Assembly (NCBI GenBank): GCA_022813865.1
Contig: JALDZX010000009.1
Coordinates: 310,001 to 374,000 of the forward strand
Reading direction: 5' to 3'
DNA length: 64,000 nt
From: Xylographa opegraphella
Taxonomy: Eukaryota
Part shown: positions 4,401 to 36,972 of the stretch, piece after piece
Position numbering within the stretch: the stretch's first letter is position 1
Layout of the letters: every line of letters begins with the position of its first letter
Program-made: the position numbers and the translations under genes
Notes under the pieces: generated by a model
Database searches by the model: none
Seen by the model: only the letters and a program-made list of their open reading frames with translations
What the model was told of the DNA's origin: nothing

Positions 4401-7306
4401 AAGAAGAATCCTGCCACAGCCAAGCTTGGTTACGCCCGGCGAGCCCAGCATGCATGGACAAGTGTGAGCACTGAGCACTTCCCTAGTCGCTCATCGACTG
4501 ACACGGTCGATGGACGCACTCGTTTAGTTCATGCATTGCATGTTAGGAACTGGCCACTGAACGGCTACCGCCCATACTATTTCAGCCATCTAATCAATTC
4601 TTCTGAATCTTAATCTCCGACCAAACAACTGCAGCTGTGCCATTCGGGGGCGTTTGACCTTGCCCCAAGCCAAAGGATGTGGCAGAGGCAAACGGCCGGG
4701 CGCAGAGGCGGACCAGGACTGGTTTATGCTCGATAATCTGATTGGGCGTCACCCTCCCATCACACCGACATCAGACACGATATCTGACTCGGACGTGCAC
4801 ACCCTGTGCATCCCACCGGCAAACTCTGCCTCTGAAGACTATTTGAGCAGTAAGGTAATGGCAAGGGGCCTTGAGCGTACGCAAGCACTACCTACCTACC
4901 TGACCTTCCGAGGCGCTGTGCTGGAAATGGCGCCATCGGGACAGGCAGCTAGCAAGTGACGGGTGAAGGGGGTCAGACACGATGCACGGTCAGCCATGAT
5001 GGCCCGCGGCCGGCCAGCTCAGACGGGAAGCGATAGGCCCGAGTTTTGATGCAGGAGGGTGGATGAGTGCATGAGGAAACGACGGTACAAGCCTCATCGC
5101 CAGCACGCAGCCGGGGCGACCATAGAAGAGGGGCCATTGGGCGGGCATCCAACGATTTCACAAGTGATGCACTTATGCACAAGGCTGGGTTCAACCGCCG
5201 GTGCAACGAACGACGACGACGACGACGATGACGGGGCAAAGCGGATGCGAGGCCCCAAAATGATTCGCGTGGGCGTGCATCATCTCTTTCCAACCCAGCT
5301 TCTGCGATCATCCCAGGAGTCAAGGGTGGATAGGTGGGGTTGTTGGGGGGGGGGGGTGGAGTTGTCGCCGTCGGCAGTATGCGCAGGGAGAGAGTTTATT
5401 CTCTGGCAGAAGCCTTGCGCTGCTTCCAGCCAACGCTGGCCGTCCATTTGGGCATTATTGGGTAGTGCCGTTCCAGAGTTTTGCAGTTCAGTCACACAAG
5501 CACCCACACACGCGCACACGCACACACACACGCCAAGTTTCCATCCCCAGCAATGCATGAAATTGGAAAAAGACGCGGTCGGAATTGGATCAGCCGAAAG
5601 GAAGGGAAACGTCACGACGACTAGGCCCGGAATGGCTAGCGGCAGTTGGCGCTAGAGGACGCGGCCCCTTGGCTCGGGTCATGTGAGCGGGCTGACGCGG
5701 AGGGGGGGGGATGAGCCAATCACGGGCTCGGCGGCCTCGAAAAAGGACAGCTGTCCAAGTCGGACGACGAAAGCAGAATGAGGCGACGCTGTGACAAAAC
5801 TTACGTCGCTAGTCGCTCGCCCCGGGCGTATTCGCCAGCACCTGCCTGGCCAATCACGACGCACTGACCGCTTTTCCCTTTCACACCCGCGGCCCGTGTT
5901 GCTTGCTCGTTTCTGCCTTCCTTGGGAGTCTCGGAGTCTTGGATTCTTTTTTCGGGTCACGAGCCAACGGAACGCTTCCACGGTCGAGAGTGACAAGTCA
6001 ATCGCCCCCAAGGCATCATTCCGGCAAACGATGACTCTCAACGCACAAAGGGGAGAGGACGCTAACCCAACACAGATTGGCCTCCAACCCCAACGGGGCT
6101 ACCGTCCTTCCGGTCCACGTTCCTCTCAACATCATGGCCGCCTAGGTACATGACGGGCGCCAGAGAAGCCCAAGCCCAGAATCCTTTGACGGAGTACGTA
6201 GTAGTACAGTACTGGAGTAAAACGCCCCATCGCTGGTCTCGCTTGGCTGCTTTTTGAGCGAGCGTTGTCGTCGGATTGGCAACGACGTCTTTGCCACTGA
6301 GGGCGGGTCACTTTCCGTCGCACTCCACCGTCCATCTTTGTCCCGAAACAGCGCAGGACTTGTTTTTGAATTCCTGTTCGCTCATCAGTCATCAGCCCAT
6401 CAGCCATGCGCCAAGTGGTCCATCGAGGCACCCCCCCCCAGGGTGGTCGGGATGCCCTGCTGGCGCTCGGCCTTGTTCATCGGTCTGACTTAGCTTCCCT
6501 TGTGGCCCCCGCCTTCACCCACGCCCCGACCCTGATCCCTGCAAGCGTGGAGCGAGTGATTCACACCGTATCAGCATTTAGCAGCTTCACCTTCTTCCCA
6601 AAACGCCCCGTCTGTTCGATTCGGACTCTTGAGCAGAAGCAGTACTGCACGCCTCCATCACGGCCCCCCGGCTATGTAACTTACCTCACCTGCTCCCTGC
6701 CCTCACTACACTACTACCCGCTAACCCCAAACCCTCGCTGGGGCCCGCCTTATTTGATCTGCTGTTGCTGCATCCCCTCCAACCAGAATCCGTTCACGCT
6801 ATCCCCCAAACATTTACAACCTGCCACACCCACTTCCCCCCCCCCTCCTCCAACTTGACTGGCCACCTGCTAGTCAACTGGAACTGAAGCTGCCTTCAAA
6901 AGCGAAATACAGTTCCCGCCATCATACCTTACCACCACCNCCCCCAAACAACAAACCCCACTACAGCTTCAACTTCATTATCCTCTCGACGCCGGCTTCC
7001 TTCCTAATCAACCTTGCGCCCCGCTACGCTTCCTCACTCCCATCGTTCCAATTCTCACATTCCTTTGAAACCTCTTGGTCGCCTATCTTGGGCCTATCCT
7101 GGTGATCTTCCTCCTCCCAAAGGTCAGCCTCATTAAACCCTCCGCCAGCTCCATATATTGCAGGTCTCCAGAGCGAATCTATTGCCACTTGGGAAAGAAA
7201 GGAAATCAAAACAGCCCACGGAAAGAGCCCACTGTTGTTGTTGTTGTTGTTCTTGCTGTTGCTCGATCTGCTTGTGCTTGGTACGGGTATTGTGCGGACT
7301 GCCATC

Positions 7307-17255: not shown

Positions 17256-18182
17256 GAAGGATGGCTCGGTGCCCCGTGCCAGGAATACAACGTTTGCCCG
17301 GATTCATGGCGTTCCGTGAGCCGAGTTTGTGCTAAAGCTACGGGTTGATAATAAGGGGTGGGGAGGTTTGGTGCGTTATGAGTTATAAGCTGGATAGCGC
17401 ATTCATGTTTGTTGAGGAGAGATGGAGTCTAATTCGTATGGATATAGTGGATTGCTTTTTTCATGGGGTTTTGCAGTCCATTGGTTAATCAGGTTGTCAG
17501 TTAGAGGGAGACAGCTTCCGATATGCTCCATGTTGAGCTATATAGTAGACATACTGTGAAATACGTGGGCTTTCGCTTTCGTGATGTGATATACGCATGT
17601 ACGTCGCCGGGAACAGCAATCAGCGAGCCAAGAAAAGCTTGTTTGGGTGTCTAGCTCGTCCGTCCAGCATCGTCGTTCTTCCTAACAGTCATTGCTTCTC
17701 AAACGAAGACTGCAGAGTTTCTGATGACAATAGAATATGGCGCATAGTCACGCTGAGTCACCATGGAACCTGCCACAAGTGGGTCTGCGTTCTGTAGCCT
17801 TTTGTGAATGCGGCCATGCATAATAAGAACATGGCTCTTCACAGCATTGTCCTTTGTTACACCATATGGGGAAATTAGCGACGTCAACCGATCACATATG
17901 ATTGCTCGTATGATTCTGCAGCTATTCATGGTATCGTAATGTGTCCGATAATGTGTATGAATGGGCTGCGGTATGACTGCTGCGTTGGAGTACCCATTTT
18001 CTTAAATTATGATGAAGCTTGACACGCAGTTCTCTTATCACTTGTTCTGAGGTGCGGAATACTTTCACGCGCTCAGCGCATGCTGAGCTTTTCCTTTTGA
18101 TATATGTCTTTCCGGACGTCTTTCTGAGATCTCTTCTACGACGGCTCAGCTAACCCACGTACGATCTGCGCAAGACGTCAAG

Positions 18183-20026
18183 ATGGAAATCGGTCCGTCT
18201 CCTAACGCGAACGGAAGTATACAATCTACTATCAGCAGTATTGGTGGTTGGGCAATGAATACAGAACTGGCACTGGAGGCTATTCTTAAAGGTCGGGGAG
18301 CAAAAGCAGACCCTGTTAAGGTCATCGAACACACAAGGAAACAAGCGCGCCACTATAAGAATGGAAAGACCATCCCCTCTTTCTCAATGAGGGACATCAA
18401 CCTTGGAACTTCCGTCCCTGTCGTATCTGCAGTTGACTTGGAAAGGCAAACGTCGTCAGAGGACTCGAATGCAGCAGCATCCAGCAGGGATCGAAACTTG
18501 GTGAGTACCAGTGCGCTAGCTAATGCCAGGCGCGTGAGTAACGAGGCAGCTAATCTTGACGTGAAGGTCACTTGGGATGGGCCTGACGACGTTGCAAACC
18601 CGAAGAACTGGAGCTACAAAATGAAGTGGACGGTCACTATTGTCATCTCCTTGTACACTCTGATTTCAAACATATCTACCTCGATCATGGCCCCTGCTCT
18701 TACGAATATAGGGACCGACCTCAATATCCACCGCCCTTTTCAACTTTATCTCACCTTGTCGATTTTTATACTGGCATATGCTTTCGGTCCTTTCCTCATC
18801 GGTCCACTATCCGAGATATACGGCCGAGTCTTAGTATTGCAATTATCAAACTTGTTTTACCTGATTTCAAATACTGCTTGTGGCTTCGCACAGAGTGCTG
18901 GCTATCTGACTGCCTTCCGATTCCTCGCTGGTCTTTGCGGAGGGTATTTACTCGATATCCCCTACGTTCTTTCCGAAGGATATAAGCTGATACCATGTAG
19001 TGCACCGTACACCATTGGCGGCGCGATTTTGGCCGATTGCTGGGCCGCTGAAGAACGTGGACGATCAATCGGAATATACACCTTAGCACCCCTACTTGGC
19101 CCCGTCATCGGCCCTATCATTGGCGGACTGATCACACAGCATAGTACTTGGCGATGGGTCTTCTGGGCTACATCTATTGCCAGTGGGATTGTCCAGTTTC
19201 TAGGTTTCGTGTATCTACGGGAGACTTATGCACCCAGAATTCTCGCCAAGAAAGCTCGGAAACTTCGCCTTGCTACACAAAATCAGGCCTGGCATTCCAA
19301 ATGGGAGACATCTGATCGCACCCTGACTAATGCTCTTAAGGATGCACTTATGAGACCGTTCGTCCTCCTAGGTACGCAGCCGATTATCCAAGTCCTCTCA
19401 CTCTACATTGCCTACCTTTTCGGTCTCACTTATCTTGTACTCGCTTCACTGGCTTCTATTTGGACAGACATCTACCACGAATCAATAAGTATGGGTAGCC
19501 TGAACTATATTTCTCTTGGCATCGGGTACCTGATGGCATGCAATCCACCGCGCGCCTCAACGATGCCATCTATAAGCGTCTCAAGGAAAAGAGTGAAAGC
19601 GGTCTGGGACAACCTGAATTCCGCCTTCCTCTCATGATACCAGGCGGCATACTCCTACGCCTGGGCCTTCTCTGGTACGGGTGGAGCGCTCAAGCGCATG
19701 TCCATTGGATCATGCCCAACATCGGCATTGCCATTTTTGGTATGGGCGTCAAAATTGGAACGCAGTGTACGCAGACGTACGCGGTGGATGCTTACACTCT
19801 CTATGCTGCATCAGCGAGTGCTGCAGGGACCTTCCTGCGGTCACTGTTCGGTTTTGCCTTCCCGTTGTTTTCGCCGTACATGTACAGGAGTATGGGCTAT
19901 GGATGGGGAAACAGTCTGCTGGCACTTATTGCCGTTGTACTACGCATCCCGGCGCCGTTGCTGTTGTGGAGTTATGGGCCATGGTTAAGGGCGAGAAGCC
20001 TTTATGCGGTGGGAGATGGGGAGTGA
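18183..20026 (+). pseudogene. DHA1-type MFS multidrug transporter with a frameshift
   Basis: WDGPDDVANPKNW, GPLSEIYGR, WRWVFW, ETYAPRIL, PEFRLP and GYGWGNS. In-frame intron 18944-19000. The frame breaks at ~19533-19537 (GYL-atggc-MQSTARL) with no intron there. Start is 18183 or 18387. Confidence 0.8.
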
Positions 20027-33180: not shown

Positions 33181-34517
33181 CTAGACAATGGCCCTTTCCA
33201 ATGCATTCCGGCACACATCCTGTGGCACAGGCACCATATGGTCGCACTCACAGCGACACCCAAACGTCGCCGGCGGCGCATACGGGCAAGCTTGAAACTG
33301 CCCATGTATATACCCTACATCTGAAAAACGATGCGTCTGCTCCGGCTTCAGTAGCAGCGCCACGGCTAGTGAATGGATAGCCGCGTCCCCCCACTGCCTT
33401 CGTCAGTGTACTTCCCAAGAGACAATGCACGATCATGACGCACCCGTTCGTAATGGAATCCTCCCGTTTCGTCCAGCGCCTGGAAAAAATCCCGATACTC
33501 GTGGCTTCGGAACCAGTCCATGTCCGCAATTTCAAAGTTGCTCCAATAGTGACAGAAATTCCAGGCGTCGCCGTGGGAGTCCCGGCCGGGGAGATAGCGC
33601 AGGAAGGGACGAATTGGTAAAGGAGCCCACGAGGGGTCGACGAAGGACTTCCAGAGGGGGCTTGAGGGTATACCTCGTAAAAGCTTATAGGTGGCAACAT
33701 GGCTGAAGAGGCTGGGAACGGTGTTACCGAGTTCCCAGAGGCCCATCACCCAGCCATATACCTTGTTAGCCTTTTGCATGGCGAGAAAAGGATCGCTGTT
33801 CTCGATAAGAATAATCCAATTTAAGGATTGTTATAACTTACTATGTAATAGCACAAGTAAAACGTACATCTGGTTCCACCCGCCAGTACCACTTGTAGGG
33901 CTTCAAAGCCTCATGGTCGAAGAATTTACTAAGTCCGTTAGTGGAGATTTCCCCTTGTACACGATAGGCTTGCTATACCCGGAGTAAAACCGGCACATAT
34001 GATGATAGTTCTCCAGTCCCGCATACTTGATCCCCATTTTTTCCTGCTCGGCCATACGTGTTCTGGCCTTTTCAGTGTCCACCCAGTCCGGGAAACCCCA
34101 CATATTAGAGCTATTGGAAATTGTTTCAAACTGTACCTGCCCGCTGACGACCCGTGTCAAGGAATCCACGAAATGCTGATCGAATGGTTGGTCATTGAGG
34201 AAAATGACTGGGTAGTGGAACCAGCCGTTGAATTGTTTCTCGAGCGATGCGATCGATTGAACCGCTCCGTTGACTTCGCTATTCCGTGCCAGCATAACTA
34301 TCGCAGCATTGGCACGCGGACCAGCGATATCTGGCTCGACGCATTCTGTGGCGAAGGGCTGATCTAGAAGAACAGGGGCTTTTGGAATACGGTAGCTGTA
34401 AATATGCAAGAAATGCTCAACTGAAAGAGCTAAAATAATCACAATGGCAATATAAGACGAGAGCGCGCGCCGAAAGATGTAACGATTTAAACGCCTCGAT
34501 TGGTTAAACATGATCAT
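33181..34517 (-). CDS. GT15 (KRE2/KTR family) alpha-1,2-mannosyltransferase
   Basis: N-terminal TM, MLARNSE, YHHMCRFYSG, WYWRVEPD, CHYWSNFEI and ERWGDA. Three GT-AG introns. Confidence 0.92.
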
Positions 34518-35120
34518 ACTTCTTAGCACCTCGCATCTCTGCAAAGCAATAATGGCTCAGAGGGGGCAGTATGAGATTACAAATGGTGGTTTTGCCAGGA
34601 GGAATAGGAGGCTTGGTACGCTGACGACGCCTCTTCCTTCGCATCCTGCAACGCCGTTTCGCGGTATTTGGCGATCGAAGCGCGCAGCCCAAACGAAGCT
34701 CAACGGTCTCCTTGCATTCTGGTGAGACGATTTACTCTGATATGTATCTCCAGATGATGCACTTAATTGTTGTAGTGCTGTAGATCTGCAGAGCTGTTAT
34801 GTACAAGCCAGTGGCCGCTCACACGAATCATGGTTTTTAGAGACGCAGGTGTAAGCGTAAGTAGTAGTTTCTCTGACAAAATGCCAGATGAAGGTAATTT
34901 CTTCAGCGATTGAAGCTCCTTCCTTCATCGGATAGTCCATAGCAACTGCCCATACTTTACATGGCAGGCACGGCAGGGTAATTTGTACCCCGCCATGGTG
35001 ATGCTTTTCCCTCCGAACGCCAAGATTTTGCGCCGATAGCGGCAAATTACGTCTGACTTTTGAACATCTCGCACGCAGCTGTGTCGAAGCCTTGGAATTG
35101 AAAGGCAAGAGGATTGGATT

Positions 35121-36972
35121 ATGGCAACTGTTGTTCTGGGATCCCAAGTAAGCCATCTCCGTTATCATGTCTCAATTGGCCAGAGCGCAATTCTAAAGAG
35201 TGGTTAGTGGGGAGACGGTATGAATCGCAACACCAGATTTCTCGAGACACTCTAACAAGAAGAATTTAGAGGGCAAGGGGAAGCTGGTATGTCATTGTCT
35301 CCTCGTACTTGGTAGAGGCTAATCGCGCATAGATCGATATTCTCTCCAGCAAAGCACAGCTCTGCGCTCGTGCTCAGTAAGTAACCACAACCAAACGCTC
35401 CAACCATTGACTAACTCAATGGTGTCTCAGGGGAGGGAACAATGCTGGCCACGTATGGAAGCCCCAGATGATTGAATAAATCTCCACTGACCTTGGCTAG
35501 ACCATTGTTGCGAACGGCAAGACCCTTCACTATCATATAATACCAAGCGGGCTTGGGCTTGGGAATAAGAGATGCCAGAACCTAATCGGATCTGGTACTG
35601 TTGTCCATATACCCTCGTTTTTCGAGGAGCTCGAGGCATTACAGAAACATGGAGTAGATACCAATGACAGGATATTCATCAGTGACAGGGCGCACGTTGT
35701 CCTTGATCTGCACCAGCGCGTGGATGGTCTAGAAGAGGCAGAGTTGGAGGGCGGAGGATTGATGAAGATAGGAACCACAAAGAAGGGCATTGATAAGTGT
35801 GGCCATGCCGAAGGAGATCTACCCTGCTAATTCGGATTTCACGCCCAACTTATTCCACTAAAATGACAAGATCTGGCATTCGAGTAGCGGACGTATTTGA
35901 CCAAGAGCTTTTCGAATCAAAGGTACGCCGACTGGCGTCTGGTTTCAAGAAACGGTATGGCGACCTCCTCGAGTACGATGTCGAAGCCGAAATCAAAAGC
36001 TTTCGCGATTACCGTGAAAGGCTTCAGCCATATGTGATAGACCAAATACCTCTTATTCAATCCGCCAAAGAACAGAAAGCCAACATACTGATAGAAGGAG
36101 CGAATGCTATAATGTTAGACATAGGTATTTGTACACAATTTCTGAAGACAATGTCAAAACTCATTAAGGATAGACATGGGAACTTACCCTTACTGTACTT
36201 CGAGTAATACTGGACTAGGCGGCGTTCTAACTGGTCTTACTATTGGTTGGCGATCAATCAAAGAAGTCATCGGAGTGGTAAAGGCGTTTACCACACGTGT
36301 AGGGTCTGGGTAAGTAACATAGTTTCCGGTATGGCTCCCCTTGAGCTTACGCTTCTTCCTTAGGCCTTTCCCAACCGAACAACTGAACGAGATCGGCGAG
36401 AAACTACAGTTCATAGGCAAAGAGTTCGGTGTAACAACAGGAAGGAAGCGAAGAACGGGCTGGTTCGATGCCGTAGTCGTACGGTAAGTCGAACCCTTTA
36501 CAGCAGTCTACCAACGGAACGACATGCTGATCTGTACAGGTATTCCCATGTCTGCAATGACTATACTTCCCTCAACCTTACCAAACTCGAGTACGTCCTT
36601 CCCCAGCTGGATGACGAGCACATCATATGCTAACTATATGGAAGTGTCCTTGATGATTTTGAGGAAATCAAAGTTGCCACGGCCTACACGTATCAAGGCC
36701 AGACTCTCGAGTCATTTCCGGCGAGTACGGAGATTCTTGAGAATGTCGAAGTCGTATATGAGACGTTAGCTGGCTGGAAGCAGCCAACGACGAGTGTCAA
36801 GACCTTTGAAGAGCTGCCGCTCAATGCCAGGAAGTACGTGGAATGGATAGAGTTGTTTGTGGGAGTGCCGATCACTCACATCGGAACGGGTAGGCACACT
36901 TGTCGGCATTTGGGAACGCCTGCTAACTATGCACCACCAGGGCCTGACCGAGAGAGTATGATCTTCCGGTAA
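35121..36972 (+). CDS. ADE12: Adenylosuccinate synthetase, 12 exons
   Basis: Spliced translation gives [80 protein letters not shown] and IGTGPDR. Ten GT-AG introns plus one AT-AC intron. Confidence 0.96.
35793..35842 (+). other. Non-canonical AT-AC intron (50 nt) with U2-type signals
   Basis: ...GGC ATT G|ataagt...gctaat...tttcac|GC CCA ACT TAT. Removal restores GIGPTYSTK. Retention reaches an in-frame TAA at 35828-35830. Confidence 0.9.

Follow-up and report, generated by a model that had tools for sequence, protein, structure and literature searches.

Natural U2-type AT-AC introns, also called type II introns, are extremely rare and have barely been documented in fungi. A survey of ~610,000 introns reported 24 of them (PMC1557818), and AT-AC has been described as a minor class in fungal annotations (PMC7072748). 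The animal representatives in SCN4A/SCN5A and TAF2 (Sheth et al. 2006, PMC1557818) have the same termini as the intron described here and share with it the /ATAAGT start, an ordinary branch site and conservation among orthologues. Generally, known U2-type AT-AC introns follow a strong /ATAAGT consensus at the 5' splice site, while U12-type introns follow /ATATCCTT (PMC5029451). In yeast, which is without the minor spliceosome, an engineered A...C intron has been reported to be spliced (PMC5029451; Parker and Siliciano 1993, cited in PMC5029451 and PMC1557818), and a G-to-A change of the first intron base has been reported to be rescued by a G-to-C change of the last base in both yeast and human, with lower efficiency (PMC1557818). 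The nested AT-AC intron of S. cerevisiae RPL30 (PMC5029451) is also a natural AT-AC junction in an ascomycete without U12 machinery. Among filamentous fungi, xylanase genes were proposed to hold type II introns (PMC1557818), and RNA-seq studies reported AT-AC junctions in Fusarium graminearum (PMC3577648) and Trichoderma longibrachiatum (69/14305; PMC4324775). No paper linking AT-AC introns to adenylosuccinate synthetase (AdSS) was found in the open-access library searched; the only co-mention concerns Schistosoma and is unrelated, and published junction lists may hold orthologues.

Intron 6 of an AdSS gene in the window, that is, the whole 64-kb stretch of DNA that was analysed, is an additional case of this known and very rare intron class and involves no new mechanism. 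With a probability of about 85%, the segment 35793-35842 is a genuine and functional spliceosomal AT-AC intron of this gene, in which the terminal G...G pair has been replaced by A...C and which would be removed by the major (U2-type) spliceosome. Unlike the animal type II introns, it belongs to a filamentous ascomycete, is 50 nt long and interrupts a purine-biosynthesis gene, and its splicing is predicted here. Its terminal bases are identical to the compensating pair of the engineered yeast intron; however, the latter is a laboratory construct of reduced efficiency, whereas the AdSS intron represents a natural state across species. The RPL30 junction has been reported as a side product of 1-2% with a 5' site unlike /ATAAGT, whereas the AdSS intron has the exact /ATAAGT and must be the productive splice of a gene for an essential-type enzyme. 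The Fusarium and Trichoderma junctions belong to the same phylum-level group and to the same junction class, but in the accessible text of those reports they are list entries without conservation analysis, and none of them concerns adenylosuccinate synthetase. With U12-type AT-AC introns, intron 6 has only the terminal dinucleotides in common, as the 5' site and the branch motif differ. Since it lies in a core purine gene, in a phylum without the minor spliceosome, and is shared by several species, intron 6 would be a clean equivalent in nature of the classic first-base/last-base suppression experiment. For annotation it serves as a warning, as a gene predictor limited to GT-AG and GC-AG introns must either break the AdSS gene or drop ten residues of the IMP-binding loop.

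The features of the gene and of its sixth intron are listed below.

35121..36972, + strand: adenylosuccinate synthetase gene (ADE12/purA type), 12 exons, CDS of 1278 nt, 425 aa
35501..35792, + strand: exon 6, ending GGA ACC ACA AAG AAG GGC ATT G, which encodes GTTKKGI and the first base of a Gly codon
35793..35842, + strand: intron 6, 50 nt, phase 1, with termini AT (35793-94) and AC (35841-42)
35793..35798, + strand: 5' splice site ATAAGT of intron 6, the U2-type consensus with A replacing G at +1
35826..35831, + strand: putative branch site GCTAAT, with branch A at 35830
35828..35830, + strand: in-frame TAA inside the branch motif, which closes the stop-to-stop ORF 35501..35830
35840..35842, + strand: 3' splice site CAC of intron 6, its AC being the first AC 3' of the branch A
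35843..36124, + strand: exon 7, starting GC CCA ACT TAT

The exon model was drawn by eye from the sequence and then checked by a script, the translation of which gave 0 internal stops in the CDS. The predicted enzyme can be aligned without gaps to a relative of 427 aa (P0003) at 86% identity, and it shares 76% identity with the Pseudogymnoascus enzyme (P0004). Exons 6 and 7, which flank the intron in question, score 92.6 and 79.5 bits, respectively, against the Pfam family PF00709 (cut-off 27), and are matched by AdSS chains of the PDB with E values of 1e-21 and 3e-17. Among the named relatives, Pezizomycotina score best, with Pseudogymnoascus first and many Dothideomycetes next, which makes the filamentous ascomycete host assumed by the earlier note a reasonable assignment. 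Among 144 columns conserved in at least 95% of 82 full-length relatives, the window agrees at 140. The four deviating residues, which are encoded in window exons 8-9, are C239 (for V), F270 (for Y), T308 (for C) and F311 (for L); P0003 has the window's residue at all four positions, and P0004 has it at T308 and F311 only. These residues thus read as substitutions of the lineage, a lineage-specific signature and not decay, and the AdSS gene appears to be full-length, intact and under constraint.

Among the 11 introns of the gene, ten are GT-AG and intron 6 alone is AT-AC. Its 50 nt fall into the range spanned by the other ten (46-60 nt), and its branch motif resembles the CTNAY motif (CTAAC, CTAAT, CTGAC or CTGAT) found in nine of them at 9-16 nt from the end, so that intron 6 departs from the other AdSS introns solely in its terminal bases. 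The elements described in the earlier note can be read directly from the sequence: the 50-nt segment 35793-35842 starts with ATAAGT and ends with CAC, the GCTAAT motif stands 11 nt before the intron end (12 nt as counted from the putative branch A), and the TAA at 35828, at which translation of an unspliced AdSS transcript would end, is real and corresponds to the end of the ORF 35501..35830. The first AG downstream of the putative branch A is at 35869-35870, which is 40 nt beyond it. Accordance with the other ten introns also extends to the architecture as a whole, and the proposal of a U2-type AT-AC intron in the IMP-loop region of AdSS is supported as far as sequence can support it.

The position of the junction is exact to a single base. 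In the PF00709 alignment, the match to exon 6 spans positions 38-130 and the match to exon 7, counted from 35845, spans 132-224, and only position 131 is missing. Likewise, the PDB chains leave one residue between the matches to the two exons (154/156 in 5i33, 167/169 in 1iwe and 133/135 in E. coli 1ade). This residue is the Gly of GIGP, the codon of which is composed of G(35792) and GC(35843-44); a shift of both intron borders by one base would place Arg or Asp there instead of Gly. All frame-keeping GT-AG, GC-AG, AT-AC, AT-AG and GT-AC pairs around the site were enumerated, and removal of 35793-35842 was the sole one that restored the motif of the GTTKKGIGP region; no GT-AG or GC-AG pair among the enumerated in-frame pairs restored it. 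The claim that AT-AC removal restores the loop motif is therefore borne out by Pfam, by the PDB and by the enumeration of pairs. The accompanying claim on GT-AG pairs of plausible length, that none does the job, stands in that none restores the motif and has to be amended in that one in-frame pair of plausible length exists:

35797..35870, + strand: cryptic in-frame GT-AG pair, 74 nt, which yields GIDKSGIRV with the loss of ten conserved residues and which annotation restricted to GT-AG might select

If the main product were made by this cryptic pair, the gene would encode an AdSS variant lacking ten residues. The frame stays open, 74 nt is a plausible intron length, and a GT at +5/+6 is inherent to ATAAGT; however, the ten removed residues are conserved in all full-length relatives aligned, and they include an Arg that is aligned, by an ungapped PDB offset, with Arg143 of the E. 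coli enzyme. An Arg at this position presumably has a role in IMP binding. In addition, the donor TAA/GTGTGG (with the slash marking the cut) is poor, the acceptor lies 40 nt past the branch A, and use of the cryptic pair would leave the conserved A at +1 and the non-G 3' end unexplained. Splicing by the cryptic pair is consequently considered highly improbable in comparison with removal of the AT-AC segment.

The sequence pattern alone is less telling. The window contains two copies of the bare pattern ATAAGT..CTRAY..YAC, compared with an expectation of 0.88 from shuffles, and at least two copies were found in 20 of 100 shuffles, while the GT-AG version of the pattern is enriched in the window (6 against 0.91 expected). 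Because the bare pattern is expected about once per window by chance, the significance of intron 6 comes from its exact placement together with its conservation.

As for the splicing machinery, the major spliceosome could recognise intron 6 by the G at exon position -1, the TAAGT at +2 to +6, the CTAAT and the typical length. A minor-spliceosome (U12-type) intron is the obvious other candidate, as most AT-AC introns of animals and plants have been reported to be U12-type (PMC7072748). Against this, the 5' end of intron 6 reads ATAAGTGT and does not match the /ATATCCTT consensus (PMC5029451), and the minor machinery has been reported to be missing from Ascomycota, in which, according to the same source, neither minor introns nor snRNAs are convincingly documented (PMC10639083); on this point the literature agrees with the earlier note, according to which filamentous ascomycetes are not known to have the minor spliceosome. 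The sequence ATATCC is absent from intron 6, and its branch region, CTGCTAATTC, fits the CTRAY of the other AdSS introns. The region near the 3' end reads CCCTGCTAATTCGG, and neither it nor CTGCTAATTC matches the U12 branch motif. A U12-type identity is thus extremely unlikely. An Rfam scan of the 64-kb window gave 0 families and no snRNA, a span that is uninformative about the genome. Use of the major spliceosome is most likely, a judgement based on the signals of the intron and on literature at the level of the phylum and not on this genome. Of the features expected of a U2-type AT-AC intron, the termini, /ATAAGT after an exon-final G, the branch distance and, as read from protein fragments, conservation among orthologues are found here.

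The following course of splicing can be proposed. U1 and U6 would recognise the TAAGT core, and branching would presumably take place at A35830. In the second step, the A at +1 together with the last C might replace the usual non-Watson-Crick contact between G and G, so that the acceptor would be the first AC 3' of the branch point (35841-42). Joining of G(35792) to GC(35843-44) would then remake the GIGP glycine and the loop. Two further ideas, bypass of the 50 nt during translation and RNA editing of the A at +1, were rejected, since neither has any evidence in its favour and the segment shows the full anatomy of an intron.

Conservation of the intron termini was assessed in relatives through their proteins. 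Many entries of the protein collection are naive ORF translations of fungal contigs, which run from an exon into the intron until a stop, and the reading of the fragments given here assumes that they are such translations of genomic DNA. The sample of 239 relatives' proteins was classified by the residues that follow GTTxxG. The site is not covered in 22 proteins, and in 184, mostly full-length gene models, the sequence is continuous through the site and uninformative; the full-length model P0003 carries GIGP. A further ten are continuous and demonstrably genomic, as they run into intron 7, so that these are intron-less here. Fourteen proteins, a few of them doubtful, diverge directly after GTTxKG, which fits a GT intron that splits the preceding Gly codon in phase 1, 6 nt upstream, and one has an in-frame insert after Ile that is read through. 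In four (P0128, P0130, P0152 and P0154), the position after GIG is E, M, E or a stop, which fits an intron with G at +1 (G/GTGAG or G/GTATG, with the slash marking the splice site) at the window's phase-1 position. The remaining four (P0141, P0142, P0172 and P0174) read GIDK.

The GIDK fragments are those closest to the window, with 88-91% identity in exon 6. In each of them GTTKKGIDK is followed by divergence. Asp (GAY) at the split codon requires an A at intron position +1; the Lys (AAR) after it fits AAG at +3 to +5, and the next residue, Cys, Ser or a stop, fits ATAAGT. The tails beyond this point differ (CHGRL; stop; CGHAEENSLC; SALAEFENKG...), so that the intron bodies appear to have diverged in the window and the four relatives while the A at +1 stayed. 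The exon-7 fragments P0225, P0222, P0215 and P0217 would represent the downstream exon on the contig of each A+1 fragment; the pairing (P0172 with P0215, P0174 with P0217, P0141 with P0225 and P0142 with P0222) is deduced from equally sized contigs.

At the 3' end, one relative is assessable. The fragments P0141, P0142 and P0172 stop inside the intron, and in a search with exon 7 for fragments running from the intron into this exon, all close ones start at an internal Met, so that only P0174 is informative. Its tail of 25 codons ends in HVPRTRPR and a stop. A script enumerated all back-translations of this tail against (G)PTYSTKM of exon 7 read in another frame, and two nucleotide strings were compatible, both of which give a 53-nt intron with CA and then C or T before GT CCC ACG TAC; among random peptides, 6/20000 were compatible in the same test. 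The P0174 intron would thus have A as its first base and A plus a pyrimidine, not AG, at its end. Moreover, the TD codons of the tail would allow an ACTGAC branch motif at a distance of 13 nt from the intron end. As regards the conservation of the termini, a point raised in the earlier note, the protein fragments point to A at +1 in 4/4 assessable close relatives and to a non-G last base in 1/1.

These relatives bear on two less favourable readings of the locus. One is that a sequencing or assembly error masks an ordinary GT-AG intron. The window does contain one N (at 6940) and, elsewhere, one apparent frameshift; nevertheless, an error would have to consist of two independent substitutions at a distance of 49 nt, Asp and not Gly is encoded at the split codon in four independent assemblies from relatives, and the intron of one relative (P0174) ends in a pyrimidine. 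The chance of an error of this kind is practically negligible. The other reading is that of a dead gene: the segment of 50 nt would be inserted DNA or an intron whose mutation prevents its removal, and the organism would depend on another AdSS copy. A lone G-to-A change at +1 is indeed a classic splice-killing mutation, and the apparently frameshifted MFS transporter gene in the window indicates that broken genes or assembly errors occur here. On the other side, A at +1 is found in 4/4 assessable close relatives with diverged intron bodies, and the changes at the two termini are the only pair known to restore splicing. Furthermore, the remainder of the gene is undamaged: the other ten introns are canonical, the protein aligns to P0003 free of gaps, and the mere 4/144 conserved columns that differ are the same in P0003 at all four. 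A dead gene is accordingly very unlikely, and a functional AT-AC intron is the preferred reading.

The distribution of the intron was examined with a tree of 40 hand-picked rows out of 241 proteins (P0001 and P0002 included), for which the exon 6+7 region (188 columns) was used. The window's group has 8 rows (SH-aLRT 90, not starred) and contains P0172/P0215, P0218, P0214, P0174/P0217, P0003, P0141/P0225 and P0142/P0222; A at +1 is present in 5/5 assessable rows of this group, as placed by a hand-picked tree on a short alignment. The group is nested in a 22-row set (support 98), the members of which have a GLGL insertion in common. This set also holds groups with the intron at the site 6 nt upstream, including Pseudogymnoascus, and an intron-less group. 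The fragments with G at +1 at the window's position group with Alternaria-like sequences outside the 22-row set. Relatives with the intron 6 nt upstream are P0123-P0126, P0131, P0133 and P0134, and relatives without an intron at the site are P0005, P0006, P0012, P0162 and P0220.

The position of the intron near GTTxxGIGP thus varies among related fungi: it may interrupt the GIGP Gly or the Gly that precedes it by two codons (phase 1 in both cases), or the intron may be missing, and the AT-AC intron reads as a character of the window's clade. As the AT-AC state is old enough to be common to a small clade of relatives, it is most likely maintained by selection. Since the nearest sisters have their intron 6 nt upstream or none, descent from a GT-AG intron at the identical site is plausible and should be taken as no firmer than that; descent from the GT intron 6 nt upstream and a new gain are the other candidate origins. 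Exactly 6 nt separate the intron position of the AT-AC clade from that of these sisters, and the canonical GT intron of the sisters is also in phase 1 of a Gly codon. It is conceivable, though doubtful, that the AT-AC state arose together with this two-codon shift of the intron, in a slide that either went via the non-canonical termini or was fixed by them. If this were true, and clade and sisters had the same intron, the locus would offer a natural case of intron sliding linked to non-canonical termini.

A role in regulation has also been suggested, in which AMP synthesis would be tuned through the AT-AC intron as a step that is deliberately slow or coupled to NMD. AT-AC double mutants have been reported to splice below wild type in both yeast and human (PMC1557818), retention of intron 6 would lead to the premature TAA, and the AT-AC state is conserved in the clade. 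However, a premature stop upon retention is a property of most introns, and sister lineages have a GT intron 6 nt away or none. Conservation of the AT-AC state would be equally expected without regulation, because the two terminal bases depend on each other and either single reversion would do harm. A regulatory function of the AT-AC intron is therefore regarded as unlikely.

Several other observations were made in the window. A single N is present at 6940. A gene for an MFS transporter (Pfam MFS_1) lies at ~18087-20026 on the + strand and shows a frame change at 19535-19550, between GIGYLMACN and STARLNDAIYKRLKEK; there is no intron-like signal at this point, and apparently one base is missing or two are extra, which would point to a genuine frameshift (and a pseudogene) or to an error in the assembly. 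The other occurrence of the AT-AC pattern (19485-19548, + strand) is located inside the coding sequence of this MFS gene (ISMGSLNYISLGIGYLMACNP) and is a chance hit. Upstream of AdSS and on the opposite strand, the ORF 33906-34556 (- strand) matches Glyco_transf_15, glycolipid 2-alpha-mannosyltransferase (E = 9e-33), and is probably one exon of a KTR/KRE2-type gene.
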